A stretch of DNA of 56,570 nucleotides, taken from NCBI GenBank assembly GCA_013387205.1, contig WARV01000011.1, positions 1 through 56,570 on the forward strand. Direction: 5' to 3'. Source of the stretch: Patescibacteria group bacterium. GTDB taxonomy: Bacteria; Patescibacteriota; Doudnabacteria; UBA920. The position numbers and the translations under genes were made by a program. The notes under the pieces were generated by a model that worked only from the letters and a program-made list of their open reading frames with translations, was not told the origin of the DNA and did not search any database. This document shows positions 2,789 to 19,645 of the stretch, in pieces. Position 1 is the stretch's first letter. Each line of letters starts with the position of its first letter.

Positions 2789-3640
2789 ATGGACGCCATA
2801 GATTTTTTAAAAGATAGGGACAATCTTCAACCTCTTAAATACAAAGAAGTAGAAGGTTATATACATAATGACCATCGTTTTTTACTCCCTTTGGTTTATA
2901 TAAGCCAAGAAAAAAGATTGCTTCCTAAGCCTTGTAAACTTATATTATTTGATGCCCATCATGACTCTTGCCCAGTAAACAAAGAACAATTGAAAGAAAT
3001 AGAAAAATTATTTAGTAATAAATATTCAATAAATGATTTAATAAAATTAACTGACAAGGTATTAGGTCAGAATGACGACGACTGGATTCAGGCAGGAATG
3101 CAGTTGAATCTATTTAGTGATGCTATTGTTTTTGGAGTGACCCAAAATCCCATTGACGATATGGAATGCCAAGAGATCGTTGATATTTCAGGAAACAAAC
3201 ATCATCTAGAGATTAGGCCCTTATTTCCTGGAGACATGCTTGAATATCAATGTTCTTTAAGTGATATAGCCTATGAAGAAAGATACAAGCATTTTTGGGA
3301 TTTGTTGGATTGGGAATTTGTACCTCGTGAAGGATTTAAATTTAGAGAGACTAATGAAAATATTGCAATTAGTATTGATTTAGATGCCTTTACCATACAC
3401 TGGGAACATTTTATTTTCCCTTGGGATAATGAAGTATTTATAGATAAATTCCTAAACGAATCAACTTATTGGACAACCCAAAATTGGTCAGGCAAAAAGG
3501 TGTTTGATAACTTTATAGAAAGATGCGGAATGTTTGCTATTGCGAGAGAACCTAGATACTGTGGAGGAGAAGAAAAAATGGAAAAAATCTATTCCAAAGT
3601 TAATGAATTTCTTTTTAACAACCTACTGATTCAATCTTAA
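2789..3640 (+). CDS. UPF0489-like arginase/deacetylase-fold protein
   Basis: HNDH, LILFDAHHD and SIDLDAF metal-binding motifs. Confidence 0.7.
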   Translation: MDAIDFLKDRDNLQPLKYKEVEGYIHNDHRFLLPLVYISQEKRLLPKPCKLILFDAHHDSCPVNKEQLKEIEKLFSNKYSINDLIKLTDKVLGQNDDDWIQAGMQLNLFSDAIVFGVTQNPIDDMECQEIVDISGNKHHLEIRPLFPGDMLEYQCSLSDIAYEERYKHFWDLLDWEFVPREGFKFRETNENIAISIDLDAFTIHWEHFIFPWDNEVFIDKFLNESTYWTTQNWSGKKVFDNFIERCGMFAIAREPRYCGGEEKMEKIYSKVNEFLFNNLLIQS

Positions 3641-4189
3641 AGGACCTTTGGTTTAAAATCGAATAAATTCCTTTTACCAGAACAAGAAAAGTTTTCCACT
3701 TGTCTCGAGATGGTCTATCAAGAAAAGTCCCCGAGTTTATCTCGGGGTTTTTTCGTGGTTAGTTCATGGTTAGGATAAGAACTCCTTCGGGTTCGACTAT
3801 GAGTCCTCCGTAGCTTAGCGAAGGAGAAAATTCCATACTTGTACTTGTTCCTACGAAGCTTTAGTGAAGTGGGATGGATTGCTACTAATCCACCACTAAA
3901 CATCGGGAATCCTTATATCTTGGGTCTTCCAAAATTAGGAAAGATTCTGTAGAATTTCTTTGCCTCATTAACTATTGAAAATCTTTTGATATTAGGGTGG
4001 TGCCTATGAGGCTCCGCTTTTTAAGATTACCCATTGAGTATTGAAGACTATAGAGCTTAGGTGGTTCCTAAAAACGTCAAAGATTTTAATAATGTGTTTT
4101 ACTCTATTAATAAATAAGAATATGTATGAACTACTTCACGTAATTATGAGGAAATGCATACCTTACTCTTATCGTATGTGGACAAATTA

Positions 4190-4875: not shown

Positions 4876-5103
4876 ATGGATGATAAACTTGGGGAATCTA
4901 TAGCCAAAAAACTGAATGTTCTAATTGCTTTGACACTAAACAGGGCTCTAAACAGTTCGCCATTTCAACACAATAAAAAAGAAACTGGAGACAAAATAAG
5001 GTATTTGGCTAGTTTTGGATTAAACCCTAATGACATAGCAGAAATTACAGGCTCTCCAGTTCAAAGTGTTAGAACCCTATTGACGCCTTCAAGAAAAAAA
5101 TAG
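4876..5103 (+). CDS. Small helix+HTH protein D
   Basis: KKLNVLIAL helix, then FGLNPNDIAEITGSPVQSVRT. Confidence 0.78.
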   Translation: MDDKLGESIAKKLNVLIALTLNRALNSSPFQHNKKETGDKIRYLASFGLNPNDIAEITGSPVQSVRTLLTPSRKK

Positions 5104-5112
5104 GCTAATTGT

Positions 5113-5904
5113 ATGGATATACAAGAACTAGTTGCCAGGGCACGTATAATCTTCAAGGGTTCTTCTAAGAGACCTAGGATTTTTAGCTTGGTAAATGGAA
5201 AGAGGTCGGCTAAAGAAATAGCACGCAAAGGTGGGTTCACGTTTGTATCCGCTCTGCAAGAATTACAAAAAATGAAAGATCTAGAGCTTGTTTATCCACG
5301 CAAAGATACGGACGGCAATCATCTGAAGAAAGATAATTCAGTGGTGTATGAAAAAGCCCCACTTCTTAAACATCTTCCCCCCTCTTATTTCTCTGAACCC
5401 ACAAAGCTGCCTATAGTGAGAAAGATTAAAAGTCAGAAAAGTAAAACTAAAAATAATTCAGCAACAGTTACTGTTCCAACAGAACAACGGATATTAGATA
5501 TATGCAATCACGGGGAAGATCAGCTATATGAATTCAAAGAGGCTGGCGTAGAAATGTCAAAATTATCAAAAGAAATAAGCGCTTTTGCTAATACTGAATT
5601 AGGGGGAATAATTTTTTATGGCATAGAGGATGACGGCTCCATAGGGGGCTCGGACAAAACACGCCAAACAATAGATCAATCATTACGCAATAGTATAAGA
5701 AACTCTATTTCTCCTTCTCTAAGTGTAAAGATCGTCGAAAAAGACGTCCTTGGTCATAAAATCATACTCATAGTTGTTCCTCCATGGAATAGAAAAGACG
5801 TATATCAATATGAAGGACGAATATATCTTAGAGATGGAACCAATGTATTTGTTGCAAAACCAGAAGAAGTAAGAAAGTTACACCTGGGTCAACCAGTAAG
5901 ATAA
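5113..5904 (+). CDS. N-terminal wHTH fused to an AlbA_2 (Schlafen-like) domain
   Basis: GKRSAKEIARK..SALQELQKMKDLELV HTH; GEDQLYEFKE...KEISAFANTELGGIIFYGIEDDG is the AlbA_2 signature. Confidence 0.85.
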   Translation: MDIQELVARARIIFKGSSKRPRIFSLVNGKRSAKEIARKGGFTFVSALQELQKMKDLELVYPRKDTDGNHLKKDNSVVYEKAPLLKHLPPSYFSEPTKLPIVRKIKSQKSKTKNNSATVTVPTEQRILDICNHGEDQLYEFKEAGVEMSKLSKEISAFANTELGGIIFYGIEDDGSIGGSDKTRQTIDQSLRNSIRNSISPSLSVKIVEKDVLGHKIILIVVPPWNRKDVYQYEGRIYLRDGTNVFVAKPEEVRKLHLGQPVR

Positions 5905-5906
5905 CA

Positions 5907-6740
5907 ATGAACAATACAACACTTCACAATCTTTTTGAGCGTTTACGAGTAGAGTTGAGGATAACAAAGCCGAAAACCTTACGAAAAAAAATTCAAAGGG
6001 AAGCTTCAAAACTAGGTCTTACCACTGATGAAGCGCTGTTTATATTGGCGAAAGAAAATGGTATAGGTTATCAAAGAGAATTTAGAAAATTGAAGCCTGA
6101 ATCCAGACAGTCCATAACCGATGCTATTAGAGAATATAGTTCAAACAGTTCCAATATCACAAATACCGCAAAGGCAAAAGCACCTTCTTTTCGTGGGAAA
6201 AATAGAACAACTACGATCAAAACTAAATTTGGTAGTATCACAGAACCTTATCTTCCTCATACGATTAACCAAGAAGCAGTTGATATGGCTGAGCAAGCTT
6301 ATTTAAGTTTGTATATATTAGAAAATTCAGTAAGGAGTTTTGTTCTAACTGTAATGAAGAAGAATTACGGAGAAGATTGGTGGAAACATAAAATGGGAAC
6401 AAAAAAATTAAAAGATATTGCTGCCAAGGTTACTGACAGACAAAAAACAGAAGAAAAAAATCGATGGCATGGCAAAAGGGGTGCTCACCCAATCTACTAT
6501 AGTGATTTTGGCGACTTATCTGTAATTATAGAAACCTATTGTTCTAATTTCCGTCCTTACTTCTCAAATTTGAAATATAAAGAGTCTTCGTTATTGCTAA
6601 AGTTAGCAGAAATAGAACCTTCTAGAAATGTTACAGCTCATCACAATCCACTAAAAAATAACGACTTGAATAGGGTTCATGGCTACTTAATAGACTGGGT
6701 AAGCCAGTTAGAATATATAAAAGACAACTATATCTTATAA
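5907..6740 (+). CDS. Swt1-like HEPN domain protein (predicted RNase) with N-terminal helical extension
   Basis: LYILENSVRSFV..YGEDWW..YSDFGDL..SRNVTAHHNP, including the RxxxxH HEPN motif. Confidence 0.85.
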   Translation: MNNTTLHNLFERLRVELRITKPKTLRKKIQREASKLGLTTDEALFILAKENGIGYQREFRKLKPESRQSITDAIREYSSNSSNITNTAKAKAPSFRGKNRTTTIKTKFGSITEPYLPHTINQEAVDMAEQAYLSLYILENSVRSFVLTVMKKNYGEDWWKHKMGTKKLKDIAAKVTDRQKTEEKNRWHGKRGAHPIYYSDFGDLSVIIETYCSNFRPYFSNLKYKESSLLLKLAEIEPSRNVTAHHNPLKNNDLNRVHGYLIDWVSQLEYIKDNYIL

Positions 6741-6756
6741 TTAATTAAAAATAGGC

Positions 6757-6930
6757 ATGGCTCAAAAGAAAAAGAATGTTCAGCTAGAGCCCCTTGAAGC
6801 TATAAAACGACTCATGATCTTGCAGTTATTAGCTCAAGGGGTGAAAACCGAATCCATTGCTGAGATGTTGCAAATCGACACCAGTACAATACGGCATATG
6901 GTTTCTGTAAGAGGTGTTAATTCTAAATAA
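6757..6930 (+). CDS. Small helix+HTH protein E (57 aa, not in ORF track)
   Basis: MAQKKKNVQLEPLEAIKRLMILQLLAQGVKTESIAEMLQIDTSTIRHMVSVRGVNSK*; same architecture as proteins A-D. Confidence 0.72.
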   Translation: MAQKKKNVQLEPLEAIKRLMILQLLAQGVKTESIAEMLQIDTSTIRHMVSVRGVNSK

Positions 6931-7238
6931 CATCTATAACAATTAAGGCAACTCAACTCGTTGTCTTTTTTGTTTTACTAAATATACTAACATTTTTGGA
7001 TACTCTAAGGGGTATTACTTCCCACTAAATAGGTATAGATTTACAGGTTTCTTTGAATGCCATAAGCTTCTCCAGTATATCCAGAATGGGTTAAGCACAA
7101 CGCTACCACAAAAGAACCAACCATCGGTTGGTTCTTTTGTGGCTGCAAAGATGTCTTTATACAAGAAATTTTTGAAATAAAAAAACAGGGGAAGAAGGTA
7201 ATTCTTCCCCTGCCGCGCACTTGGCACTGGGTGCAAAA

Positions 7239-7946
7239 TCACTGCACCCGAAAATCCCAGACAAGGCCCTGGAGCTCCTTGGTGACGGAGTCTGCCAGCG
7301 CCACGACGTATTCGCCGTTTTCAAGCAGAGACGTCGGCGTCAAGGATAAATCTCCATTATCCCTTTTTTCGAGCTTGCTGGAGATTTCTTTTTGTTCAAT
7401 CCCCAAAACTTGGGTTTGCATCGGATTGATAGCGCTCTTGGTCAGCTCAGTTAAGACGTGGGCCGCACGGATGATCCGCGCCTGATCCTTCGCCGATGGG
7501 CTGACCTTCAGCAGTATCGGAGTTGAATTTACTCCGTACGTCCGCATGGTTTCTGCCGAAACGACCAGGACAAGTTCGGACCCAGACACTGTTACCGAAG
7601 CGGTTAGTCCTTGCACAAATGAGAGATTGTAACTCTCAGTCTTGGTCTGCTTCTTATATAGCAGGCCTTTGGCTTTTCCGAAGCCAATCACCGCCGCTGT
7701 CCCGGCAATTGGAACGTGCGTTGCGACGCCGGCCAAAGCTGTGGAACCGACCCGGTTTGCCACCTCCTCTTTCGCCTCGTCTTTCAAAAATTCGGTCTTG
7801 TATCCGGCATGAGCCGGCAATGTTGTAGACGCAGAAGGGTGCGCCACCAACGAAACATTTTGGCCTTTGCTAGAGGCCGTTACCGTGATTGCCTGTGCCA
7901 GCATTGTGCTGACAATAAGAAAAAAAAGCGATGCAATACGAACCAT
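7239..7946 (-). CDS. Secreted hypothetical protein
   Basis: N-terminal signal peptide and AAGGAGG RBS. Composition is visibly more GC-rich than its neighbours. Confidence 0.7.
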   Translation of the reverse strand: MVRIASLFFLIVSTMLAQAITVTASSKGQNVSLVAHPSASTTLPAHAGYKTEFLKDEAKEEVANRVGSTALAGVATHVPIAGTAAVIGFGKAKGLLYKKQTKTESYNLSFVQGLTASVTVSGSELVLVVSAETMRTYGVNSTPILLKVSPSAKDQARIIRAAHVLTELTKSAINPMQTQVLGIEQKEISSKLEKRDNGDLSLTPTSLLENGEYVVALADSVTKELQGLVWDFRVQ

Positions 7947-8196
7947 ATTTGGCCCTCCTTATGGCCCTGTGTTCACCAAAGTAGTGGAAACACATTGCAA
8001 AATCTTCAAAAAAATTAAAAAATCTGCAACGAATTTCCTTGGTACCATTTTCAATATTGTAGCATTTATGTTATATTTTGTCAAGTTTAATTCTTAAACC
8101 AGGCTGAAATAAGCCATATTTATTTCTAAAAAATGGCACTAAATAATTATATTATTATAATAAATGATAGTTCAATTAAAGTCATTAAAACTCCTA

Positions 8197-8217
8197 GATT
8201 TTCCTAAGGGCTATCAA
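8197..8217 (+). repeat. Degenerate copy of the tRNA-Glu 3' end (att-like site)
   Basis: GATTTTCCTAAGGGCTATCAA matches 1705-1725 GATTCTCCTATGGGCTACCAA at 18 of 21 positions. Confidence 0.55.
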
Positions 8218-8270
8218 CAAAAACCCCCAAACACTGTTCGGAGGTTTTTGTAATACAGATAATTCCAGTT

Positions 8271-8486
8271 TTACATTTCCGGGGCGGCGTCAAATTTGGG
8301 CTGGAAGTCCGCCATCCATTGGGCGTTTTGTTCCGGGGTCATATTCTTCATTTGTTCGGCAATGTCGGGATGAGATTGCATGACATGCTCGCCTCCGTTC
8401 TTGGCCATTTCCTCGGCCGTTTCGCCGGTGACAACGAAGTTGCATTCAGCCGGCCCGCCCATTTGGGCACAAGTCATTTGTTTCAT
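8271..8486 (-). CDS. DUF1059-like small metal-binding protein
   Basis: MKQMTCAQMGGPAECNFVVTGETAEEM...HVMQSH (C..C..H..H); AAAGGAG RBS before the ATG at 8486. Confidence 0.8.
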   Translation of the reverse strand: MKQMTCAQMGGPAECNFVVTGETAEEMAKNGGEHVMQSHPDIAEQMKNMTPEQNAQWMADFQPKFDAAPEM

Positions 8487-8771
8487 ATTATCTCCTTTCT
8501 TTAATTGAGCTGGTCTCAAATGAGTTTTGAGACCAGCGTATTATATGTTTTGACGCAAAAATTTTCCGCGACTTATAAAATAATTATACCATTAAATGGA
8601 CATATATCAACATTATTTAAACGCCTGTTGGATAAGGCTGAGTATTTCGCAAGGCCGGGGGATAACAACCTATAAATAATATGCAGAAGTTAAAACAATA
8701 TTGATTAATAATTAACCCAGCATTTAATTCCTATTTTATGGAGATGTGATATAATTAAATTATAATTTAAG

Positions 8772-8920
8772 TGCCTAAACCCGAAGCTTCTTGGCTCGGG
8801 CATGGCATAAAAACCATTTGCACATAGAGACGGTCATCCGTCTTGTCTGACTGTGCAAATGGTTGTCGCTCGAAAGGGTGGCAGGTCCGCAAGGGCCAGG
8901 GCAAGCGGGTGGCCCTTTTT
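8772..8920 (+). ncRNA. Candidate structured leader RNA, copy 1
   Basis: GCCTAAAC..GCATGGC stem, 13-bp P2 with inner hairpin, GAAA and GCAA tetraloop hairpins, terminal hairpin plus U5. Homologous to 17612-17772 and 17988-18128 with compensatory changes. Confidence 0.75.
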
Positions 8921-8988
8921 GTATGCCACAAAAACTTGCCTGCCATAAACTGGCGTTAACGAAATAAAATTAATTTAAGAAATATAAT

Positions 8989-10968
8989 ATGCTAAGAAAC
9001 AAAAAATATTTTCTCTCTTTGTTTATAGCTGTTGTTTTAATAGCAACCAGCATTAGTACAGCTTACGCCTTGCCTTATGCTCCAGGAGAAACTTTGGATC
9101 CAACGTGTCATCCCGGCGATGCCAACTGTAATGTTATTATTCCATCCTTTACCGTTGGTGGTGATTTGTCCGGTACCAGTAAAGCCCAAACCGTTATTGG
9201 TCTGCAAGGTAATCCGGTCTCTTCTTCTACCCCTGCCTCCAACCAGGTCTTAGCCTGGAATGGTTCAGCCTGGGCTCCGGCTAACCCAGCTAGCGGCAGC
9301 CAGTGGAGTAACGTTTCAGGAGGAATTTCTTATAACTCTGGTAACGTGACGATCGACACTACGGTACTTCCGCATGGCGTTCCGGTGTCGGTTAAAGCCT
9401 CTCGGTTTGGCGCGGCGGGAGACGCACGGCAGGTCACAGACGGCGCGATTAACGTCGGCACGAACAATAAGCTACTCACCTCCGCAACGGCGGCGTTCGC
9501 GGCATCGGACATAGGCAAGACTATCGTGATTACCGGAGCGGGTGCGGCTGGTGCGAATCTGTCCACTACCATAACCTCTGTCATCAGTTCAACCAGTGTG
9601 ATGTTGACCGTCGCCGCGTCTATGACCGTGAGCGGCGCAACCGTGGTACTCGGCACTGATGACACCGCAGCCATTAATTCAGCCATCTCGTACTTGCAAA
9701 CCGTAAATCGCGGGTCGTTGTATTTCCCTTCCGGCCAATACCTCATCACAGGAGAGGGCTTAAATTTGGACCGTATACAATCGCAGGGTGTTCAGTTATC
9801 GGGAGACGGCCCTGGTCGTTCTGTTATATACGTCACCGGCAGCATCGGCCTTAATTTCCTGGGGACAAATGAGATGGCTGTGCGTGATCTTGGGATCGGG
9901 GGAGTCAATGCCGGGGTAGGTGTTCTGCTTGGCCGTTATACTGACGATCACACTAACGGGCAGGGCCGCTTTGAGAATGTGCATGTCAACGGTACGTTCA
10001 GGACAGCCGCTGTCTATAACATCTCCGCTGAAAGCGTGATCTGGTCGAATGTGTGGATTCAGAACTGGGCACCGGCCAGAGGCTTTTACACTAGCTCGAC
10101 GAACGACCTCAACGTTACACTTTCGCGGGGCACGATCGACACGGTTACTGATGTGCAGAACACGTTTATCGGGTCACACATCCAGACTTGTGCGATGGAT
10201 GCTGCCAGCACGGCAGTGGAGGTTCACGGGAACGTCTCCGTATTTGGCATGTTTAATAGCTATATCGGGACGAACGGAAAAGGCTTCTACCGGAGTGCAT
10301 CCGATACGAACGAGTATTCCGGAACTGTCAATATCATCGGCGGAGGAATTGAGAATTGTGTGGCGAACGGCGTTTCGACGGTGTATTGGCCAGTCTATTT
10401 CGATGGGGATAAATTCGATCACGTCACGATCCAAGGGTTGTCCATTTACCAGACCAGTATCAGCTCGCCGCATCCCGGAATCTATCAGGCAGATGGAGGA
10501 GAGATTGACGGCTCATCGTTCCTCAATATTTATACCGAAGGTACCGGAGGGGGTCCGAGTTTCTACAATCTCAGACATTCGACGGTACAGACTCTTTATC
10601 CGCTTGCCATTCGCCATGACGCCTACAACAACAACTTGAGCGCGTATTCGATCACGATTTCCGGAACGGACATTGGGTTCAACATCAAGAAGGCGTTTTC
10701 GCCGGGTTCGATGGCGATATCTGGCGCGGTGAACATCGACACCGTATCTGCGACAACGTTCATCGGCAAGCGCAGCGCGGGGACCCCCAATTACCCAGAC
10801 ATCTACGGAGGTGCAGTGGGAATTTGTCTAGCCAACGCCGCAACCCATGAGACTCAAATCTGCCTACAGCAAGGGAAGCTTATTATGACGGGTATTCCGA
10901 CCTCTTCTGCTGGCTTGACCAGCGGAATGGTGTGGAACAATGGCGGCGTATTGACCGTGGTTCCATAG
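8989..10968 (+). CDS. Secreted protein: conserved N-terminal module plus beta-helix (pectate lyase 3/tailspike-like) domain
   Basis: Signal peptide; shared PYAPGETLDPxCHPGDxNC module; FGAAGD...DDTAAINSAI...LYFPSGQYLI beta-helix cap motif. Confidence 0.8.
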   Translation: MLRNKKYFLSLFIAVVLIATSISTAYALPYAPGETLDPTCHPGDANCNVIIPSFTVGGDLSGTSKAQTVIGLQGNPVSSSTPASNQVLAWNGSAWAPANPASGSQWSNVSGGISYNSGNVTIDTTVLPHGVPVSVKASRFGAAGDARQVTDGAINVGTNNKLLTSATAAFAASDIGKTIVITGAGAAGANLSTTITSVISSTSVMLTVAASMTVSGATVVLGTDDTAAINSAISYLQTVNRGSLYFPSGQYLITGEGLNLDRIQSQGVQLSGDGPGRSVIYVTGSIGLNFLGTNEMAVRDLGIGGVNAGVGVLLGRYTDDHTNGQGRFENVHVNGTFRTAAVYNISAESVIWSNVWIQNWAPARGFYTSSTNDLNVTLSRGTIDTVTDVQNTFIGSHIQTCAMDAASTAVEVHGNVSVFGMFNSYIGTNGKGFYRSASDTNEYSGTVNIIGGGIENCVANGVSTVYWPVYFDGDKFDHVTIQGLSIYQTSISSPHPGIYQADGGEIDGSSFLNIYTEGTGGGPSFYNLRHSTVQTLYPLAIRHDAYNNNLSAYSITISGTDIGFNIKKAFSPGSMAISGAVNIDTVSATTFIGKRSAGTPNYPDIYGGAVGICLANAATHETQICLQQGKLIMTGIPTSSAGLTSGMVWNNGGVLTVVP

Positions 10969-11289
10969 GTACCGTAGTTATGTTATTACAACACCAACCC
11001 CAAACATAATTCCCAAACCAAAACTATGTTAGTTCGAGGGTTTCCCTCGTTGTAGCAAGAATGTGAGAATGTTAACGTAAAAATTAACGGCTAAAACGCC
11101 CAATTTCTGGGATTTAGCCGTTTATTTTTTGATTATTCCAATCGTTTCTGGTTGTTTTTGAATTTAGCACCTTGGTTGTCTAATTAAAAACTAGCTTGCT
11201 GTTTCTATTCTATGCAGGTGTGATATAATTTAATTACAATTTATGTACCAGTGTTCATGAAATAAAATTAGTTTAATGAATACAATATA

Positions 11290-12996
11290 ATGAGAAACAA
11301 AAAATACCTTCTCTCCTTACTTGCAGCTACCGTTTTGATGGTAATTAGCTTTGGCACAGCTCATGCCTTGCCCTATGCTCCAGGAGAAACTTTAGATCCT
11401 ACCTGTCATCCTGGAGATAGTAACTGCAATGTTATTATTCCATCCTTTACTCCTGGCGGGGATTTGTCTGGCACCAGCACATCTCAAACTGTCATTGGCT
11501 TGCAGGGAAACCCTATCTCTACCACTACTCCCACTTCAAATCAAATCCTTCAATGGAATGGTTCGGCTTGGGCCCCAGCAACTTCCACCAGTAGCCAGTG
11601 GACTACTAGTGGCAATGATATCTCTTACAATTTGGGGAACGTTAATGTCTGCAATACGATATCTAGCACGCCAGGCTACTTATGGTCTAATGCTAACCAG
11701 TGTGTAGAGGGGACAGTTGATAACGGCATTACTCGCGTATTCAAGACGCGCCCTGCCGCTGAGTCTAAACGCATTGTGATTATAGGGTCGTCCACTGCTG
11801 CCGGTACCGGAGCAAGCGATTATGCACATTCTTGGGCAGGGTTATTCACTGCGGCAATGACCGCGAAGGGTTATACAGTTTTTAATGTTTCAATTCCAGG
11901 CGACTGGTCTGGACAGCAGCATGACCGATTTTATAAAGACGTGGCCCCGCTCCTGCCGGATTTTGTGATTGACGCTCAATCCTTGCTTAACGATAATTTT
12001 TTTATTTCTAATGCCAGCGGAGGATACGACACGCACACAGCAGCTGTTCGCGCGTTTATCAAGATGGTCGAGGGTATTGGGGCTATTCCGGTGGTGATTG
12101 GCCAGTATCCAAATAATAATTTTACCGCAGAACATGTTTCTTATATAAAATCGCTCTATCAGGAATGGGAAAAGCTTGGGGTGCAAACCTGGGACTTTTG
12201 GGGTAATACCGCTGATGCGAACGGACACTATATTAATGGATTGACCGTTGATGGTGCTCATCCAACCAATGCAGGCCATCAAGCAATGTTTGATGCTATT
12301 CCACTTACGTATTTCGATGCTGCGTATACCAAGCACTCTAGTGAAACCCCTCTTGGGGCGGGCGTGTGGGTGGTGAACGGATCTGCCTTGCGGCCCATTG
12401 AAGTTGATTTGCCGTCTCCGGCTAGCTCGTGGAGTTACGCGTACTGGGCTCGAAACACTCTGGGAGGCACTAACCTTGCATGGAGCGGTATTACGCAAAA
12501 TCTTGTAAGAGTCAAGAATTCAGGGACCTCACCGAACAATTATTGGGCACTCTCTGATAATGTTGGAGATGCTGTACTTTCAACAGTTAATGGCGCAGAT
12601 AATACGTGGCATCATATTGCCGTAACATATAAAGCTCCAACCAACACGTTAACATTTTATGTGGACGGGGTTTCTATCGGAACTACTACAAGAGATACTT
12701 TAAGTAATCAAAGCCGCTTCGCCTTCGGTGGCAGAGATGATACGGCATTGAATGCTAATGGCGGACAATTAGCGCACATCGCGGTTTACCGAAGCTGTTT
12801 AGAGCCTGACGATATCGTGTCTCTCGCCAGTGGAAATATTGTTCGTAAGAGTTTGGAGGCATATCTGCCGCTTTCAACTGCTCCTGCCCCGGCTGCCTAT
12901 GTATTAAATATGGCTGATACTACCACCCGAGCCAAAGTCAATGGCAGCGTTACATCTGTCATTGTAAAAGCGGGAAGTACAATCTTGGCGCCGTAA
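11290..12996 (+). CDS. Secreted protein: conserved N-terminal module plus SGNH hydrolase plus LamG/concanavalin-like domain
   Basis: IVIIGSSTAAG, SLLND and DGAHPTNAGH (SGNH blocks); WHHIAVTY..LTFYVDGV (LamG). Confidence 0.85.
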   Translation: MRNKKYLLSLLAATVLMVISFGTAHALPYAPGETLDPTCHPGDSNCNVIIPSFTPGGDLSGTSTSQTVIGLQGNPISTTTPTSNQILQWNGSAWAPATSTSSQWTTSGNDISYNLGNVNVCNTISSTPGYLWSNANQCVEGTVDNGITRVFKTRPAAESKRIVIIGSSTAAGTGASDYAHSWAGLFTAAMTAKGYTVFNVSIPGDWSGQQHDRFYKDVAPLLPDFVIDAQSLLNDNFFISNASGGYDTHTAAVRAFIKMVEGIGAIPVVIGQYPNNNFTAEHVSYIKSLYQEWEKLGVQTWDFWGNTADANGHYINGLTVDGAHPTNAGHQAMFDAIPLTYFDAAYTKHSSETPLGAGVWVVNGSALRPIEVDLPSPASSWSYAYWARNTLGGTNLAWSGITQNLVRVKNSGTSPNNYWALSDNVGDAVLSTVNGADNTWHHIAVTYKAPTNTLTFYVDGVSIGTTTRDTLSNQSRFAFGGRDDTALNANGGQLAHIAVYRSCLEPDDIVSLASGNIVRKSLEAYLPLSTAPAPAAYVLNMADTTTRAKVNGSVTSVIVKAGSTILAP

Positions 12997-13071
12997 TCGT
13001 ATGGTATACTGTGTTATTTACCTAATGATCGAAATAACATGAAAGCAAAATAATTTAAACAATATCATATA

Positions 13072-14673
13072 ATGAAAAACAAAAAACACTTTTTCTCCTT
13101 GTTTGTAGCTGTTGTTTTGATGGCAACCAGCGTTAGTACAGCTTACGCCGTGCCTTATGCTCCGGGAGAAACTTTGGATCCTGCCTGTCATCCCGGTGAT
13201 GCTAACTGTAATGTTATTATCCCTTCTTTTACTGCTGGCGGAGATCTTGCAGGGACTAGCACTAATCAAACCGTCATTGGCTTGCAGGGGAACCCTGTCT
13301 CTTCCACTACCCCTGCCTCCAACCAGGTCCTGTCCTGGAACGGCTCGGCCTGGGCTCCGGCTAACCCGGCTAGTGGTAGTCAGTGGGCGACTTCTGGAAA
13401 TGATATTTCCTATAACTCGGGGAATGTAACGGTGGGGACTACGTTACAAGTCGATGGCCAGCTAACCAAGTCGGTGTGGCGGAAGTACGGTCAGGTGTTT
13501 GCATCTGCCGCTGAGCCGAGTGTGCTGTACGAGCAAAATGCACGTCTACTCGCTGTACCGGTCGCAACCAGTGTATTTAAGGCGTGGTACGACTGCACCC
13601 TCGGAACCTGCTACGCCGAAAGTCTGACTGCGCTGCCGGGAAGTTGGACAGTACAATCAACCCCGGCCCTTACTGGGTATCAACGCACGGTGGTGCGTCA
13701 TTACGGTTCACTGTATTACTTTTTCGGGTGTCGCATAGGAGATATGGGACACATCGACGTTTTCACGTCTGCTGATGGCACACGTTTCACACTGGCGCAA
13801 GCAAACATTATCACCACAGGTACTGCCGGCGCGTGGGACAGTCTTCAAATTTCGACTGGCACCGTTGATTACGATGGGACTACGTGGCGGACGCTGTATC
13901 AGGGAAAACCTGCGGGCGGTGTGTGGCAAATGGGGCTTGCCACTGCTACTTCGGCGACGGGACCATGGACGAAGTACGCTAGCAATCCCGTGTTCAAGAC
14001 TTCTGACGGTCCAGGTGGAATGGTCGGCGGTGGAACATCTCATTACAAGGATTTATCCGGCAATATCTGGATTTGGCCGCACTCATCTACGATAGGCGAT
14101 CTGCCCACCGACATTTACCGTTACACCTCAACCGACTGGATCCATTGGACCCGCAACCCGTTGCGGCCTGTGCTACAGCGCAGCGCAATTATTGAGGGCG
14201 CTGGATTATCGCAGGGCCAAGTAGCTGACTCGTCGTTGGTGGAAGCTAACGGCAAAACGTACATGTTCCACTCGACCATTCAAAACCAATCATCAGGTCC
14301 GTTTGGCGTCTCATTGGAGATAGCGCCCATGCCATTGGCACAGCTTGTGACCACTGACGAGGGTAGTCATGCTTACGTGGCTCCTGAGCAGGGTGTATCC
14401 AATTTGGGGATCGTTCCGCAATACGTCATTACGTCTGATGGATCGTTGCAGGATAAGAGTTTCCTAGTGCTTCGTCAGGGTACTTTCAATGTCGATGGGA
14501 ATAGTTTGGTGGTTTTCGGCGGTGCGGCGGTGTCCACTTCTGGGTACACTTGCACAGGCAGTTCCAATGGACCGACCAACGGCTCAATCCGGGTGAGGTA
14601 CGACGGACTAGATCGGTTGACGGTGTTCGGACCGCCCAACGAGGCATACTCGCTCTTGTGTTTCGCACGGTAA
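13072..14673 (+). CDS. Secreted protein: conserved N-terminal module plus five-bladed beta-propeller glycoside hydrolase-like domain
   Basis: AEPSV, FTSADG, GAWD, MGLATA..GPWTKYASNPV and TSTDWIHWTR..PVL repeats typical of GH32/43/130-like propellers. Confidence 0.75.
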   Translation: MKNKKHFFSLFVAVVLMATSVSTAYAVPYAPGETLDPACHPGDANCNVIIPSFTAGGDLAGTSTNQTVIGLQGNPVSSTTPASNQVLSWNGSAWAPANPASGSQWATSGNDISYNSGNVTVGTTLQVDGQLTKSVWRKYGQVFASAAEPSVLYEQNARLLAVPVATSVFKAWYDCTLGTCYAESLTALPGSWTVQSTPALTGYQRTVVRHYGSLYYFFGCRIGDMGHIDVFTSADGTRFTLAQANIITTGTAGAWDSLQISTGTVDYDGTTWRTLYQGKPAGGVWQMGLATATSATGPWTKYASNPVFKTSDGPGGMVGGGTSHYKDLSGNIWIWPHSSTIGDLPTDIYRYTSTDWIHWTRNPLRPVLQRSAIIEGAGLSQGQVADSSLVEANGKTYMFHSTIQNQSSGPFGVSLEIAPMPLAQLVTTDEGSHAYVAPEQGVSNLGIVPQYVITSDGSLQDKSFLVLRQGTFNVDGNSLVVFGGAAVSTSGYTCTGSSNGPTNGSIRVRYDGLDRLTVFGPPNEAYSLLCFAR

Positions 14674-14726
14674 CGTAGTCATGTTATTCCAACACTAACC
14701 CAAAATATAATTCTCAAACTAAAACT

Positions 14727-15917
14727 ATGATAAAATCACTTCGTTTAAAAATATTCATCAGCCTGGCGATTATTGCCCTAACCCCGCTTTCTGCTTTTGC
14801 CTCCACTGGCACTATTGACTCTACTAACAAGTACGCCTGGGGAGAGAAGTTGGGCTGGGTGAATTTTAACCCGACTAATGGTAGTGTCCAGGTTACGGAT
14901 AGCGGGATAACAGGTAACATTTGGAGCGCTAATTACGGCTGGATTAACTTAAGTCCAGCTAATGGCGGGGTGAAGAATGACGGGCATGGTAATCTCTCTG
15001 ACATGGCCTGGGGCAGTAATATTGGCTGGGTTGATTTTAGCGGAGTCAAAATTAACAGCAATGGCGTATTTAGTGGTACGTCTACGACTGATTCTTTAGG
15101 TAGCTTGACCTTTGATTGCGCTAACTGTAAGGTGTCTACTTCCTGGCGGCCCACTGTAGCTAGTTCTGGTGGGGGAGTAGTATACCCATCCATTTACCAG
15201 GTTACAGTTGCTACTACTACGGCCACTTCTGCTTTAATTACCTGGAGGACAGACTACAACACCACAGCTACAGTGGTTTATGGTACTTCCACTGCCTACG
15301 GTTTGTCTAAAGTTGACCAGACCGCTGCTACTACTCATTCTCTACTTATAGACAACCTTACCCCTGCCGCTTCCTACCAGTTCCGGGTCAAAGCTGTTTT
15401 AAACGGTATCACCACCACTTCCAGCAACTATGCCTTTACCACGTTGGCTAATCCTGTTGTTAGCATCACACCAACGGTTACTCCTGTTTCTACCCCGACT
15501 ACAACAGAAAATCAGCAGGCTAACAACAATTTGTCTTATCCCTCCGGTACTTTAGTTTCAGATAGAGGTGCGATTTATTTGATTATTGGCCAAACCAAAC
15601 TGGGCTTTGCCTCTATGAAAGCCTTTACAGGTTTGGGTTATTCGTTAAAGAACGTGGTTAAAGGCAATGCTTCTGCTTACAGTTTGTCCAAAACCATACT
15701 AAAATCTGCCACCCAGGCACATCCGGACGGCTCCTGGATTATTTCCGGCAAGGTGGTATTTTACGTTTCTGCTTCCGGATATATTCCCGTGCCTTCCTGG
15801 GACATATTTCTCTCTAACGGCGGCAAGGCCCAATACATTGTCAAAGCCAACCGCGCTGACCTTAAAGACAAACGGCCGATTGCTTCTCCAATGACTGCTA
15901 ATGATAACAGGCTGTAA
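14727..15917 (+). CDS. Secreted surface protein with AW..xGWI repeats, fibronectin-III domain and conserved C-terminal domain
   Basis: YAWGEKLGWV, IWSANYGWI and AWGSNIGWV repeats; ALITWRTD...VVYG...LTPAASYQFRV FN3 pattern. C-terminus is homologous to that of 27298-29376. Confidence 0.8.
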   Translation: MIKSLRLKIFISLAIIALTPLSAFASTGTIDSTNKYAWGEKLGWVNFNPTNGSVQVTDSGITGNIWSANYGWINLSPANGGVKNDGHGNLSDMAWGSNIGWVDFSGVKINSNGVFSGTSTTDSLGSLTFDCANCKVSTSWRPTVASSGGGVVYPSIYQVTVATTTATSALITWRTDYNTTATVVYGTSTAYGLSKVDQTAATTHSLLIDNLTPAASYQFRVKAVLNGITTTSSNYAFTTLANPVVSITPTVTPVSTPTTTENQQANNNLSYPSGTLVSDRGAIYLIIGQTKLGFASMKAFTGLGYSLKNVVKGNASAYSLSKTILKSATQAHPDGSWIISGKVVFYVSASGYIPVPSWDIFLSNGGKAQYIVKANRADLKDKRPIASPMTANDNRL

Positions 15918-15931
15918 TAGTAAATAATAAA

Positions 15932-16178
15932 GAAGTGGTCTCAAAACTTCATTTTGACTGCAATTTTATTATTTCGGGGTTAAGCTGGCAACTGGCAGAG
16001 CCAGATTGCCATTAAAGCTCCATTCGGCCATAAAAATTTCTCCGCTTAGCCTCCGTTCAGTCTCCTCATGGGGCTGAGCCCCATGAGGCATGATTACGGC
16101 TAAACATCGAAATTTATTAAGTCCGACTGTCTCGAAATTCTAAACTTTCGACTTAAAAGCAAGTTTTGAGACCACTTC
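15932..16178. mobile_element. MITE-like element with 18-bp terminal inverted repeats
   Basis: GAAGTGGTCTCAAAACTT ... AAGTTTTGAGACCACTTC; a shorter relative lies at 22446-22518. Confidence 0.65.
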
Positions 16179-16330
16179 AAAGTAAAAACCGCCCCTCGAC
16201 AAGTGAGGGGCGGTTTTTGGTATAGCTATCCACAGCCAAGCGCTTGCATAAAAGTATTTGTAGTTCTATAATTATTTTAAAGGGTGAACGATTGTATACT
16301 ATTTTGTATTTGAACTAATGACTATAAATT

Positions 16331-16846
16331 ATGTATACGGCACTTCAAAATTTATGTCCTTGCGCCGTTATGGAGCGTTCGGTTCCGTATCGTTGTTATT
16401 CCGCGCTCCGCATTATTTGCGATGCCTGTTGTCGCGTACCTGAAGAAAGGCAACACATTTTGCCGCATAAGGCGCGGGGCAAGGCGGCCTGCGGATACAT
16501 AATGCTGGATAATAGCGACTCTCTGGTAGAGCAAAAGGCAAAGTATTTGGGGGAGTGCACGGTTGACCAGGCTGAATACCAAGCGATAATTTTTGCGCTC
16601 GACCGCGCTGCGGCTTTTTGCCGGGAGAAAATCGTAATTTGGCTAGATAGCGAAGTGATTGCCGGGCAGCTAAGCGGATGGTATTGCCTGCGCTCCGAAC
16701 TAATAAAGCCCTTATTCGATGAAGTCAAGAAGCTTGAACTGCGCTACAAGTCCGTAACTTACTTCCACCATAGCCGCGGCAGCTTCTGGGCCAGGGCCGC
16801 GGACAAGCTTGCCAACGAAGAATACAGCCGTCTGCAAAAAGGATAA
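16331..16846 (+). CDS. Ribonuclease HI-family protein
   Basis: Acidic tetrad IICD / AEY / LDSE / ADKLAN. The start codon is uncertain. Confidence 0.8.
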   Translation: MYTALQNLCPCAVMERSVPYRCYSALRIICDACCRVPEERQHILPHKARGKAACGYIMLDNSDSLVEQKAKYLGECTVDQAEYQAIIFALDRAAAFCREKIVIWLDSEVIAGQLSGWYCLRSELIKPLFDEVKKLELRYKSVTYFHHSRGSFWARAADKLANEEYSRLQKG

Positions 16847-16848
16847 GT

Positions 16849-16883
16849 ACGAGGGTTCCCCTCGGGCCGAGGGGAACCCTCGT
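16849..16883. repeat. REP doublet upstream of the Y1 transposase
   Basis: Palindrome ACGAGGGTTCCCCTCGG-G-CCGAGGGGAACCCTCGT; related copies at 17542-17560, 18391-18440 and 11036-11050. Confidence 0.8.
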
Positions 16884-16905
16884 TAGTCCGTAACATGATA
16901 CAAAA

Positions 16906-17526
16906 ATGAAAAATCGCGATTATAAAATATTCCGCAAGGGTGAATATTACCACATATTCAACCGAGGTAATAACAAAGACCCAATATTCTTAGACGACCA
17001 GGATTATTTGAATTATTTAAAAAGGATTAAGCTGGTTTTAAATATCGGCTCTTTAAGCGGCAAGCCTGCGGCCTCGGTCACCCGAATACGTCCGTTACCG
17101 AACGATGCTTTTTCTATTGTTTCTTACATACTGGTTCCAAACCATTTCCATTTCATTATAAAGCAGAATACAGATTTAGGAATTGATAAATTTATGCTTA
17201 AGCTTACTACCAGCTATGCCTCGTACTTTAATAAAAAGTACAATCATATTGGAAACGTATTTCAAGATGCATTTAAAGCCAAGTTAATAAATAACGACTC
17301 CTATTTATTGTCTCTTACCGCGTATGTTCATAATAATGTTAGTAATCCTATGGAATATCCGTATTCTAGCTTTTTAGATATAATTGACAAGCGGAATGGA
17401 GAAGTTTGTAAAAAAGACATTATTTTAAAGTGGTTTGATGGAGACCCGGAAAAATATAAAAATTTTGTTTTGAATTTTGCTGACAAAGATTCGCAAAACA
17501 TCCAGCACTTGATATTGGAAGATTGA
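16906..17526 (+). mobile_element. REP-associated tyrosine (Y1/HUH) transposase, TnpA-REP/RAYT-like
   Basis: YYHIFNRGNNK, PNHFHF (HUH), FQDAFKAKLI and YVHNN motifs; flanked by REP palindromes. Confidence 0.88.
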
Positions 17527-17611
17527 CCAACGGGGCTGGTTAACGAGGGGAACCCTCGTTCCTCGCTACAACGAAAAACTAAAACATGATATAATTCCAA
17601 TACAATTGAAT

Positions 17612-17772
17612 TGCCTAAACCTTGGCTTTTAACGAAACCAAGGCATGGCTCAAAAACCATACCTACACAGAGACGGTCATCCGTCTTGCTTCCTGTAGGT
17701 ATGGTCATCGCTCGAAAGGGTGATGGGGTGGGTGCGTAAGTGCCCATCCGGCAAGCGCGGGTGGCCCTTTTT
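17612..17772 (+). ncRNA. Candidate structured leader RNA, copy 2
   Basis: Same architecture as copy 1. P2 is ACCATACCTACA/TGTAGGTATGGT, with GAAA and GTAA tetraloop hairpins and a GGGTGGCCCTTTTT end. Preceded by TGATATAAT. Confidence 0.75.
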
Positions 17773-17798
17773 GTATGCAAAAATAACTACACAAAATT

Positions 17799-17972
17799 AT
17801 GCCTAAATTTAAAATTGACTTCTGGTTTGATCAGGAGCCTAGAAAGCTGCGCTTAGGAGTAGTTGTTGTTCAGGCTAAAACCGAAGAAGAAGCCTACAGG
17901 CTGGCATGGCAGAGAACAGAGCTGTGGCCGATCGGCGAAGTCAAAAAAGGGAGGTCGAAGCTAAGGCGATGA
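17799..17972 (+). CDS. 57-aa small protein, paralog of 18155-18388 (not in ORF track)
   Basis: MPKFKIDFWFDQEPRKLRLGVVVVQAKTEEEAYRLAWQRTELWPIGEVKKGRSKLRR*, which aligns without gaps to the neighbouring ORF. Confidence 0.8.
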   Translation: MPKFKIDFWFDQEPRKLRLGVVVVQAKTEEEAYRLAWQRTELWPIGEVKKGRSKLRR

Positions 17973-17987
17973 TCATAAAATCAAAAT

Positions 17988-18128
17988 TGCCTAAACCCGT
18001 GGGCTAAGCTCCGGGCATGGCGCTAAAACCAACATAGATAAAGAACCCTCATCGGGGTTCTATGTTGGTCGTATGGGGAAACCCATGCGTTCGGCCCGAA
18101 AGGGTCGAGCTCCCGATGGGGGCTTTTT
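17988..18128 (+). ncRNA. Candidate structured leader RNA, copy 3 (divergent)
   Basis: GCCTAAACCCG..CGGGCATGGC; P2 ACCAACATAGA/TCTATGTTGGT; two GAAA hairpins; GCTCCCGATGGGGGCTTTTT end. Confidence 0.72.
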
Positions 18129-18154
18129 GTATCTAAATAATTAATAAGGATACT

Positions 18155-18388
18155 ATGCCGAAGTACAAAATCGATATCTGGTTCGACCAAAAACCAAAAA
18201 AGCTGCGCTTGGGATCGGTGGTCGTGGAAGCAGAAACCGAAGAAGAAGCGTATAAGACTGCGTGGCATAAAACTGAGCATTGGATGCTGGGAAAGGTTAA
18301 AGAACCTGCCCAAATCCGGAGCGATCAAGTCAAACGTGATATGGCCGCGCGGGCGGCAAAGGACGGAAAATTTAGACTGCCCAGATAA
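18155..18388 (+). CDS. Small hypothetical protein with VxVEAExEEEA motif (DpnD/PcfM-like pattern)
   Basis: AAGGA RBS; paralog of 17799-17972. Confidence 0.75.
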   Translation: MPKYKIDIWFDQKPKKLRLGSVVVEAETEEEAYKTAWHKTEHWMLGKVKEPAQIRSDQVKRDMAARAAKDGKFRLPR

Positions 18389-18390
18389 GT

Positions 18391-18440
18391 ACGAGGGTTC
18401 CCCTCGGCTAAATTTGCTAAGCCCCGAGGGGAACCCTCGT
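18391..18440. repeat. REP doublet closing the RAYT locus
   Basis: GATAAGTACGAGGGTTCCCCTCGG is identical at 16842 and 18384, with the inverted partner CCGAGGGGAACCCTCGT. Confidence 0.8.
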
Positions 18441-18541
18441 TATTAAGAAAGACGAAGCCCTTTTGTCCTCGCAATGACACAAGGGCAGTAAGCATTTACT
18501 ATTTTTTAAGTTTCATTTAATAGCAATTTTATATATAATTA

Positions 18542-19645
18542 ATGTATATGAAAGGTGTTATCGAAACAATTGAAGACCTGGGTTACAATGCTTTTTTTGA
18601 ATCTAATCGCAAAGAATTGAAATTAGACGGCTTTTTGGTTGCTCGGGTCACAGCCGAACATAAAGGGGCTTACAAGGTCAGGAGCGCAAATGGCGAATAT
18701 TTAGCAAAGATAACCGGAAAGCAGATGTTTAATGCTGTATCCAGAGAAGACTATCCTGCTGTAGGCGACTGGGTGGTAATTACCGAACTCGATAAGGATA
18801 AAGCAGTAATCCAAGGGATATTGCCGAGAAAGACAATAATAAAAAGAAAACATGGCGGCAAAAACGAAACGCAAATTATAGCGGCTAATATTGACGTTGC
18901 GTTTGTTATTGAATCGTTGGATAGGGACTATAACCTAAACCGCTTTGAAAGGTATCTCGCCATAGCAAAAGAAGAGGGTGTGGAGCCATGCATAATATTA
19001 AATAAAATAGACTTAATCTCTAAAGAAGGTCTGGATTTGAAATTAGCCCAAATAAGAAACAGGCTGCCTGGTGTTGATGTTATTCCAACCAGCATTGTAA
19101 CCGAGAAGGGGTTAGATGAATTAAAAAGATACATCGCAAAAGGAAAAACTTATTGTTTTCTTGGCTCAAGCGGCGTTGGAAAATCCTCCCTGATCAATAA
19201 GCTCATTGGGGATGAAAGTATTAAAACCGGAGATATAGGTCTAGGTACCGGCAGGGGAAAACATACGACTACAAGCAGAGAAATGTATTTTTTGGAAAAC
19301 GGCGGGCTGGTAATAGACAACCCCGGAATGCGGGAAGTGGGAATAACAGACGCAAAGGAAGGTGTAGAGAATGTATTTGATGAAATAACTATTTTGGCAA
19401 ATAAATGCAAGTTTGCTGACTGCACGCACACCCACGAACCGGGATGCGAAGTGTTGCTTGCAGTAAAATCTGGCAAGTTGGAAGAAGACAAATATTCCAA
19501 TTACATTGGCTTGAAAAAGGAAGCGGAATATTACAAGATGACTGAATTTGAAAAGAGGAAAAAAGACCGCCAATTTGGAAAGTTCGTTAAGAACGCGAAA
19601 AAGGAGTTAAGGAGTTACAGGCATAAAAATAAGCAGTGGGACTAG
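18542..19645 (+). CDS. rsgA: Ribosome small subunit-dependent GTPase A
   Basis: PAVGDWV, NKID, GSSGVGKS, GKHTT and CKFADCTHTHEPGC zinc finger. Confidence 0.95.
   Translation: MYMKGVIETIEDLGYNAFFESNRKELKLDGFLVARVTAEHKGAYKVRSANGEYLAKITGKQMFNAVSREDYPAVGDWVVITELDKDKAVIQGILPRKTIIKRKHGGKNETQIIAANIDVAFVIESLDRDYNLNRFERYLAIAKEEGVEPCIILNKIDLISKEGLDLKLAQIRNRLPGVDVIPTSIVTEKGLDELKRYIAKGKTYCFLGSSGVGKSSLINKLIGDESIKTGDIGLGTGRGKHTTTSREMYFLENGGLVIDNPGMREVGITDAKEGVENVFDEITILANKCKFADCTHTHEPGCEVLLAVKSGKLEEDKYSNYIGLKKEAEYYKMTEFEKRKKDRQFGKFVKNAKKELRSYRHKNKQWD

Follow-up and report, generated by a model that had tools for sequence, protein, structure and literature searches.

LOOT RNA copies in a Patescibacteria contig share a conserved long-range pairing partner and may act as two-state leaders

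What is the structured RNA motif that recurs three times between positions 8772 and 18130 of contig WARV01000011.1 (assembly GCA_013387205.1, Patescibacteria group bacterium), each time just ahead of a gene, and what might it do there? The window analysed here is the whole stretch of 56,570 nucleotides (nt), positions 1 to 56,570 of the forward strand. An initial annotation, made from the letters alone, described a motif with covarying stems, a tetraloop/receptor pair and a built-in switch, and proposed a riboswitch/attenuator or an antisense-type regulator. We find that the motif is not new, because all three copies match Rfam family RF03000 (LOOT RNA) significantly; they are new members of a catalogued family. 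What is new is a conserved long-range helix beside a U-tract, together with a second, downstream partner for one of its strands. From these features we propose that LOOT is probably a cis-acting, two-state leader of the attenuator type.

The whole window was scanned against Rfam at the curated gathering thresholds, for which the RF03000 cut-off is 46.4 bits. Each copy gave a full-length match on the + strand, covering model positions 1-121:

8772..8897, + strand: copy 1 LOOT core, with P1 and its receptor-like loop, P2 with the inner hairpin (8829-8842), a GAAA hairpin and a GCAA hairpin; RF03000, 79.1 bits, fold reproduced by the minimum free energy (MFE) prediction
17612..17748, + strand: copy 2 LOOT core, with the inner hairpin at 17672-17685; RF03000, 73.5 bits
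17988..18107, + strand: copy 3 LOOT core; RF03000, 79.1 bits

Chance is excluded: within the window the three copies have E-values of 1e-12 to 1e-13, and LOOT has no match in any of 14 control genomes. In the cmscan alignments the copies follow the LOOT helix order, namely P1 with an internal loop, a long P2 enclosing the inner hairpin, and two tetraloop hairpins. The three P2 stems differ and yet remain paired, as the annotation had read them, and they are followed by the G-rich segment and T5 run that it had listed; once these are counted, the copies end near 8922, 17774 and 18130. The sole other Rfam match in the window at curated thresholds is a tRNA. A permissive scan of positions 6500-19000 (E up to 1) returned no fourth LOOT copy, none before the paralogous genes at 11290 and 13072, and, beyond LOOT, only chance-level matches to MIR319 and Alpha_RBS, with no riboswitch or C4-type family.

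The same genome (1.30 Mb in 24 contigs, 98% complete) holds two further LOOT copies on other contigs, scoring 87.3 and 77.5 bits. Among 151 related genomes, LOOT is present in 76, with about 125 matches; 57 of the 90 genomes from the same family carry it, and other families of the order match too. An even, phylum-wide sample gave 30 of 151 genomes. The highest number among the 151 genomes occurs in a 1.6-Mb relative (G078), whose ten LOOT copies belong to several of the sequence classes described below. We collected 114 loci with flanks, comprising 34 plus 80 of the remaining 85 above-threshold matches, all oriented on the RNA strand. One of them (L112, G103:C18:25058-25154) is a 97-nt partial match of 51.2 bits in which P1 is missing and a U-tract is not clearly present; possibly a decayed copy, it was excluded from all RNA analyses, leaving 113 loci. 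MFE folds reproduce the four hairpins in 102 of these 113.

Directly 3' of the Rfam model, every locus carries a conserved segment, here called S3, whose main classes are GCUGGCG-N-GGGGC or GGCAAGCGGGUGGCC. In each of the 109 loci analysed, S3 runs straight into a U-tract that reads UUUGUGUU or UUUUUGU. Automatic placement of the U-tract was right in 109 of 113 loci; the four mislocated ones (L031, L046, L078 and L090) also carry a U-tract by eye and were left out of the helix, folding-energy, U-tract and S4 analyses. In the window the strands concerned are the following:

8832..8840, + strand: copy 1 apical P2 strand GGTCATCCG, which pairs within the inner hairpin or with S3 (duplex prediction, alignment)
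8898..8915, + strand: copy 1 S3, outside the Rfam model, whose core CGGGTGGCC (8906-8914) pairs with 8832-8840 (duplex prediction, alignment)
8916..8922, + strand: copy 1 U-tract TTTTTGT, directly after S3 (sequence)
17675..17683, + strand: copy 2 apical P2 strand GGTCATCCG (sequence, duplex prediction)
17749..17767, + strand: copy 2 S3, with its core CGGGTGGCC at 17758-17766 (sequence, duplex prediction, alignment)
17768..17774, + strand: copy 2 U-tract (sequence)
18046..18056, + strand: copy 3 apical P2 strand CCCTCATCGGG (sequence, duplex prediction)
18108..18123, + strand: copy 3 S3, with its core CCCGATGGGGG at 18112-18122 (26-pair predicted duplex with the P2 apex)
18124..18130, + strand: copy 3 U-tract (sequence)

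The annotation had suggested that the inner hairpin could pair instead with the 3' segment, GGTCATCCG with CGGGTGGCC in copies 1 and 2 and CCCTCATCGGG with CCCGATGGGGG in copy 3. These pairs are present, and the covariation that it had inferred from three copies holds on 109 loci from more than 70 genomes. Duplexes between P2 and S3 of the same locus have a mean energy of -29.9 kcal/mol, against -22.9 kcal/mol for non-cognate combinations, and none of 5000 permutations was as low. In the duplexes chosen by the energy optimiser, which are biased to pairing, each position from -13 to -2, counted from the U-tract, has a partner in between 75 and 109 of the 109 loci, and as many as six pair types occur at one position; these duplexes average 20.7 pairs, and in them the U-tract itself pairs with a purine-rich strand that precedes the inner hairpin. 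A sequence-only MAFFT alignment gives the same picture: a 15-pair core is paired in 88.8% of 1505 cells, compared with 72.7% in shuffles (0 of 500 as high) and 43-52% in slid registers. Twelve of the 15 core pairs change on both sides, compensatory cells number 227 against 77 in shuffles, and the covariation score is 0.491 against 0.222 (0 of 500).

The apex/S3 classes are wholly different from one another in sequence. The window holds GGUCAUCCG/CGGGUGGCC and CCCUCAUCGGG/CCCGAUGGGGG, and other loci hold CCCUACG/CGUGGGG, CCCGUCG/CGGCGGG and a 14-pair combination, GGUCUCUUAACCGC/GCGGUUGGGAGGCC. Many of the pairs are U-G, and the helix is therefore an RNA helix of the + strand. A DNA-level repeat or mobile-element reading is ruled out by these U-G pairs, which are possible on the + strand only, and by the constant orientation to promoter and gene.

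Does the strand before the U-tract have a closer partner? For the 10 nt preceding the U-tract, the P2 apex is a better partner than any in the preceding 42 nt in 91 of 109 loci, and a local partner is better in 2. A cognate advantage exists for the P2 partner only (0 of 2000 permutations, compared with 1600 of 2000 for the local partner). We therefore rejected, as a conserved design, a local terminator formed by the pre-U-tract strand with the P4 3' arm or the linker, since 1600 of 2000 permutations were as good. Of the canonical intrinsic terminator, a compact G+C-rich hairpin with a loop of a few nt and a U-tract right behind it, the G+C-rich strand and the U-tract are found in 109 of 109 loci, but the conserved partner of that strand lies about 75-90 nt upstream; the local hairpins seen at copies 2 and 3 do not covary across the family.

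The long-range helix cannot coexist with the catalogued fold, because in 104 of 109 loci four or more bases of its core are already engaged in pairs in the MFE fold of LOOT alone. The inner hairpin that it would displace is itself conserved, with 296 of 300 cells paired in 51 class I rows (99%) and 173 of 189 in 32 class II rows (92%). When the long-range fold is enforced, its energy lies on average 4.9 kcal/mol above the MFE and within 3 kcal/mol of it in 56 of 109 loci; in 41 of 109 the helix is part of the unconstrained MFE structure. For the window copies the gap is 2.0 (copy 3), 9.9 (copy 1) and 15.9 kcal/mol (copy 2). Computationally, then, the family has mutually exclusive structures that overlap the would-be sensing domain, as looked for in a riboswitch.

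A second such feature, a conserved structured domain in a 5' leader, is found in the position of the element between a promoter and a gene. The corresponding features in the window are:

8747..8755, + strand: extended -10-like box TGATATAAT of copy 1, 16 nt before the LOOT match (read in the sequence; it also heads the leader of a LOOT-less paralogue)
17587..17595, + strand: extended -10-like box TGATATAAT of copy 2 (sequence and -10 survey)
8989..10968, + strand: gene behind copy 1, encoding a 659-amino-acid (aa) protein with an N-terminal hydrophobic, signal-like segment (no Pfam match)
17799..17972, + strand: gene behind copy 2, a 57-aa open reading frame (ORF) of no Pfam family, 69% identical to the ORF behind copy 3
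18155..18388, + strand: gene behind copy 3, a 77-aa ORF of no Pfam family, paralogue of 17799-17972 (ORF list, comparison)

The placement of each copy just upstream of an ORF, as first annotated, thus stands, and it is general. A -10-like hexamer occurs within 45 nt upstream in 105 of 112 loci and ends 13-24 nt before the match in 92 of the 105, with a TG extension in 43; control windows inside the downstream ORFs contain such a hexamer in 23 of 109 cases. A same-strand ATG ORF of at least 40 codons begins within 400 nt in 110 of 114 loci, and in 102 of these 110 it starts 17-95 nt after the Rfam match (median 51 nt, by a first-ATG rule under which some starts may be misplaced). Two of the four loci that lack such an ORF have flanks shorter than 170 nt. 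The gap from U-tract to start codon is only about 15-60 nt. Within the window, the gene at 11290, a paralogue of the copy 1 gene, shares the TGTGATATAAT box and a 60-nt leader next to the ribosome-binding site (RBS) and lacks the approximately 176 nt that hold LOOT (11205-11296 compared with 8725-8995). The genes at 8989 and 11290, paralogues with the same promoter, thus constitute a natural control with and without LOOT.

Downstream of the U-tract, S3 has a further partner, S4, located before the start codon. Cognate S3 x S4 duplexes average -14.0 kcal/mol, compared with -10.9 kcal/mol for non-cognate ones (0 of 5000 permutations as low), and reach -10 kcal/mol or better in 72 of 95 loci. S4 is present at copy 1 and absent at copies 2 and 3:

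8925..8954, + strand: copy 1 S4 (GCCAC, CTTGCC, CTGGC), downstream partner of S3 (predicted S3 x S4 duplex, -23.7 kcal/mol)

In a subset of the family the ribosome-binding region is also involved. It repeats 9-15 nt of the P2 5' strand exactly in 20 of 109 loci, compared with 0.7% of non-cognate pairs, and the copy on contig 20 of the same genome (L004) has such a repeat by eye. Over all loci, when the P2 domain is paired as a whole with the ribosome-binding region, the signal is weak (cognate -10.2 against -9.5, 18 of 5000 permutations) and is carried by this subset.

The tetraloop/receptor idea of the annotation also fares well in the larger sample. The 5' side of P1 reads CCUAA[A/C] in 111 of 113 loci. 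On the 3' side most loci have GCAUGG; among the variants, GCACGG, GUAUGG and AUAUGG are the most frequent. Of 104 third-hairpin loops, 94 are GAAA, and the last loop is variable (GCAA 41, GAAA 39, GUAA 11, UUCG 5). This pattern fits a GAAA/11-nt-receptor-like contact, in which the third hairpin probably docks into P1.

What do the genes behind LOOT have in common? A hydrophobic, transmembrane-like segment was found by a simple hydropathy rule in 83 of 107 downstream proteins, against a background of 38% among 1268 crude gene models of the window's genome and 24-41% in the matching size range. Sixteen of the proteins begin with a CxxC...CxxC zinc ribbon. They fall into 44 Pfam families, none of which occurs in more than six: the commonest are DUF4352 (6), Zn_ribbon_3 (5), N6_N4 DNA methylase (3), bPH_2 (3), Glucodextran_B (3), Ltp lipoprotein (2), DUF2726 (2) and SHOCT (2). 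Membrane or secreted location is the sole common theme.

Taken together, these observations favor a reading of LOOT as a cis-acting, two-state, attenuator-type leader, to which we assign a probability of roughly 60%. The attenuator half of the earlier riboswitch/attenuator proposal is thus the half favored by the data; the strict riboswitch half is unsupported, because no ligand can be inferred and the genes behind LOOT are diverse. What the comparison shows is membership of the family, the conserved alternative pairings, the position as a leader and the association with genes; that transcription terminates, in which direction regulation works and that there is a signal at all is what we infer. 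Each element would act in cis from the extreme 5' end of an mRNA, with a promoter of its own immediately before it. State A would be the catalogued LOOT fold: P1 with its 11-nt-receptor-like loop, the long P2 with the inner hairpin, the GAAA hairpin probably docking into P1, and the fourth hairpin. In state B, the P2 apex (the loop and 3' arm of the inner hairpin, plus the preceding purine-rich strand) would pair with S3 and the U-tract. Because no other conserved helix ends at the U-tract, the long-range helix is our candidate for an intrinsic-terminator stem, with the inner hairpin as anti-terminator. State A would then allow read-through and state B would yield a short, terminated RNA. After read-through, S4 could capture S3 at copy 1, though not at copies 2 and 3. 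Where the RBS repeat exists, in about one-fifth of the family, opening of P2 may let the P2 3' strand cover the region from the Shine-Dalgarno sequence to the start codon and so block translation. The balance between the states could be tipped by a small ligand, Mg2+, a protein or temperature.

Several points weigh against this reading: (i) Simple scanning finds local terminator-like hairpins at copy 2 (17744-17764, then CCCTTTTTGT) and copy 3 (18107-18125). If these are real terminators, the long-range helix is instead an anti-terminator and the sign of regulation flips. (ii) It is unusual for the strands of a terminator stem to be separated by about 75-90 nt and to have two hairpins between them. 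(iii) The switch is least convincing at copies 1 and 2, because there the long-range fold lies furthest above the MFE. (iv) None of the three window copies has the RBS repeat; the match of only 7 nt at copy 2 is within noise. (v) No shared pathway among the 107 downstream proteins, as judged from Pfam, points to a signal. (vi) Kin among the loci are not independent, so the permutation counts overstate significance, and the U-tract-anchored helix table draws on the pairing-biased optimiser duplexes, for which the permutation, MAFFT and U-tract-partner tests serve as controls. (vii) A search of public RNA runs for window positions 17560-18420 listed none that holds them.

Of the competing explanations, the one that survives best, unlikely as we judge it, holds that LOOT is a stand-alone, trans-acting small RNA (sRNA), that the long-range helix and U-tract form its constitutive terminator, and that the downstream gene is expressed by leak-through or is unrelated. 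In a variant, LOOT would be a regulator like the phage P1 C4 or P4 CI RNAs, with the P2 apex pairing in trans with S3 of other copies. Rfam itself types the family as 'Gene; sRNA', and a helix with a U-tract ends every locus analysed. The apex and S3 strands of copies 1 and 2 are moreover interchangeable, with cross-duplexes of -36.8 and -39.3 kcal/mol compared with -36.4 and -36.2 kcal/mol for their own, and on one contig filed as viral LOOT adjoins terminase and ParB-methylase genes. However, in most loci the U-tract and the start codon are too close together for a second promoter to fit between them, and both the RBS repeat of the P2 strand (20 of 109) and the S4 that covaries with S3 make sense only on one continuous transcript. 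Cross-compatibility within 3 kcal/mol is no different within genomes (30%) than between genomes (26%), and neither orthogonality nor coordination of the copies within a genome could be discerned on this basis. Neither window scan listed a match to C4, c4-2 or c4-a1b1, and nothing here favors the antisense regulator of the C4 or CI type that had been put forward as an alternative.

Still less likely, in our estimate, is that LOOT is a constitutive structural leader, a compact 5' cap that stabilizes the mRNA or guides its processing, with the alternative pairings as folding intermediates or processing stems (e.g., an RNase III site). Such a role would suit an element at the extreme 5' end of the transcript and ahead of very heterogeneous genes, and the long-range duplex, at about 20 pairs, is inferred to be long enough for a double-strand-specific nuclease. 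A passive stabilizer would nevertheless need neither RBS-occluding repeats nor a U-tract exactly at the helix end in all classes, nor does it account for two mutually exclusive helices that are close in energy and are both kept by compensatory change.

A classical metabolite or ion riboswitch, in which the LOOT fold is an aptamer and the ligand stabilizes state A or B, is the least probable of the three: the conserved complex core with its tetraloop/receptor-like pair, the near-isoenergetic alternative folds and the presence of at least two downstream platforms on one core (U-tract only, or U-tract plus S4 and RBS repeat) would suit it, but there is no coherent regulon among the 107 downstream proteins (DUF4352 in 6, zinc ribbons in 5, DNA methylase and bPH_2 in 3 each), their only shared theme is membrane or secreted location, and the most conserved nucleotides sit in known structural modules (the receptor and the GAAA loop), with no evident pocket in a cursory look.

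Returning to the attenuator-type leader, we can extend it into a broader and decidedly speculative picture, which we hold doubtful. LOOT would be a widespread regulatory class of the candidate phyla radiation (CPR)/Patescibacteria that senses a physiological signal and, by its unusual long-range terminator, gates the surface and accessory genes with which these episymbiotic cells and their mobile islands face their surroundings. Through the apex/S3 classes, a terminated LOOT RNA might in addition act in trans on other copies of its own class, so that islands would engage in an immunity-like cross-talk.

The surroundings of the three copies are of some interest in their own right. Copy 1 heads the first of three consecutive secreted paralogues (8989-14673), which have nearly identical N-terminal regions of about 100 residues and differing C-terminal parts; the first has no Pfam match, the second contains GDSL lipase and LamG-like domains, and the third has a weak GH43-like match. 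Copies 2 and 3 belong to a tandemly duplicated cassette of LOOT plus small ORF (17587-18388), in which the ORFs are 69% identical and the LOOT copies are of different apex/S3 classes; another genome has a homologous 51-aa ORF, likewise behind a LOOT copy (L106:442-594). The stretch immediately before copy 2, 16331-17526, contains two ORFs, one RNase H-like (RVT_3) and one resembling an IS200-like Y1 transposase; at 5907-6740 a further ORF has a Swt1-like HEPN domain, and a 57-aa ORF comes after it. Outside this genome, the IMG/VR contig filed as viral (L131) has a LOOT copy at 2928-3050 (93.8 bits) before a zinc-ribbon/Glucodextran_B protein. A terminase large subunit, a helix-turn-helix protein and a ParB_N-N6_N4 methylase are encoded beside it; genes of this stretch lie at 3008-4099, 4933-6462 and 6856-8238.

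How does this element compare with what is already known? LOOT originates from the survey of Weinberg et al. (2017), the main text of which does not mention it (PMC5737381). The Rfam 14 paper pictures it as a 'metagenomic-based' RNA (PMC7779021), a table in the Rfam 15 paper credits it with a gain of 2 covarying pairs (PMC11701678), and the CaCoFold paper gives it about 43 base pairs, six helices and 28 cross-covariations (PMC7657543). In the literature searched we found no paper on its function; it is named only in Rfam and in method papers. The copies described here agree with RF03000 in their full-length model matches and in P1 with its internal loop, the long P2 with its inner hairpin and the two tetraloop hairpins. 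The Rfam entry differs in that its model ends before S3 and the U-tract and describes an sRNA of metagenomic origin. Here, in contrast, LOOT occurs in named lineages (Patescibacteria, Parcubacteria, Candidatus Paceibacterota, from relatives found with the RsgA protein of the window); a promoter precedes it, a gene follows directly, and its conserved 3' extension competes with the inner hairpin. An orphan RNA thus acquires hosts, half of the 151 related Patescibacteria genomes and a fifth of the phylum-wide sample; a place at the head of mRNAs encoding membrane, secreted and mobile-island accessory proteins; and a third and a fourth pairing partner outside the Rfam model. To our knowledge, few regulators have been described in the ultra-small CPR bacteria, which cannot be cultivated on their own. 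If our proposal is true, a common, self-contained RNA switch would be one of few handles on the control of their surface genes.

The initial annotation had judged the order of elements a poor fit to the c-di-GMP-I and Moco motifs. This judgment agrees with our scans, since neither family, which we take to be RF01051 (c-di-GMP-I) and RF01055 (Moco riboswitch), was returned by the whole-window scan or by the permissive one (6500-19000, E up to 1). A tertiary module used in c-di-GMP-I riboswitches, and in group I introns, is the GAAA tetraloop with its 11-nt receptor, canonically CCUAAG...UAUGG. LOOT resembles it in having CCUAA[A/C] opposite [C/U]AUGG in P1 and a third loop that is GAAA in most loci, with a last loop free to vary; it differs at the closing position, which is A/C opposite C/U rather than the canonical G.U, and the docking is putative.

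The immunity RNAs of phages P1/P7 (C4) and P4 (CI) are leader RNAs in which a loop complementary to a downstream site brings about premature termination or a translational block. LOOT, too, is a structured leader RNA with a loop complementary to a site further down the transcript, and it too is associated with mobile elements. It differs in that, in the two window scans, it matches such families in neither sequence nor structure and in that its partner lies 75-90 nt away on the same molecule; there is also no evidence of LOOT processing or of action in trans.

The comparison with attenuators of the trp-leader type concerns the design as a whole. In these, overlapping helices form by a 1:2 / 2:3 / 3:4 logic. 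LOOT likewise has four overlapping segments, namely the 5' arm of the inner hairpin, the apex with the 3' arm, S3 and S4, and one helix that is followed by a U-tract. It has no leader peptide, and about 75-90 nt, including two hairpins, separate its segments 2 and 3. Its U-tract follows segment 3 instead of segment 4, and the middle helix is therefore the terminator candidate.

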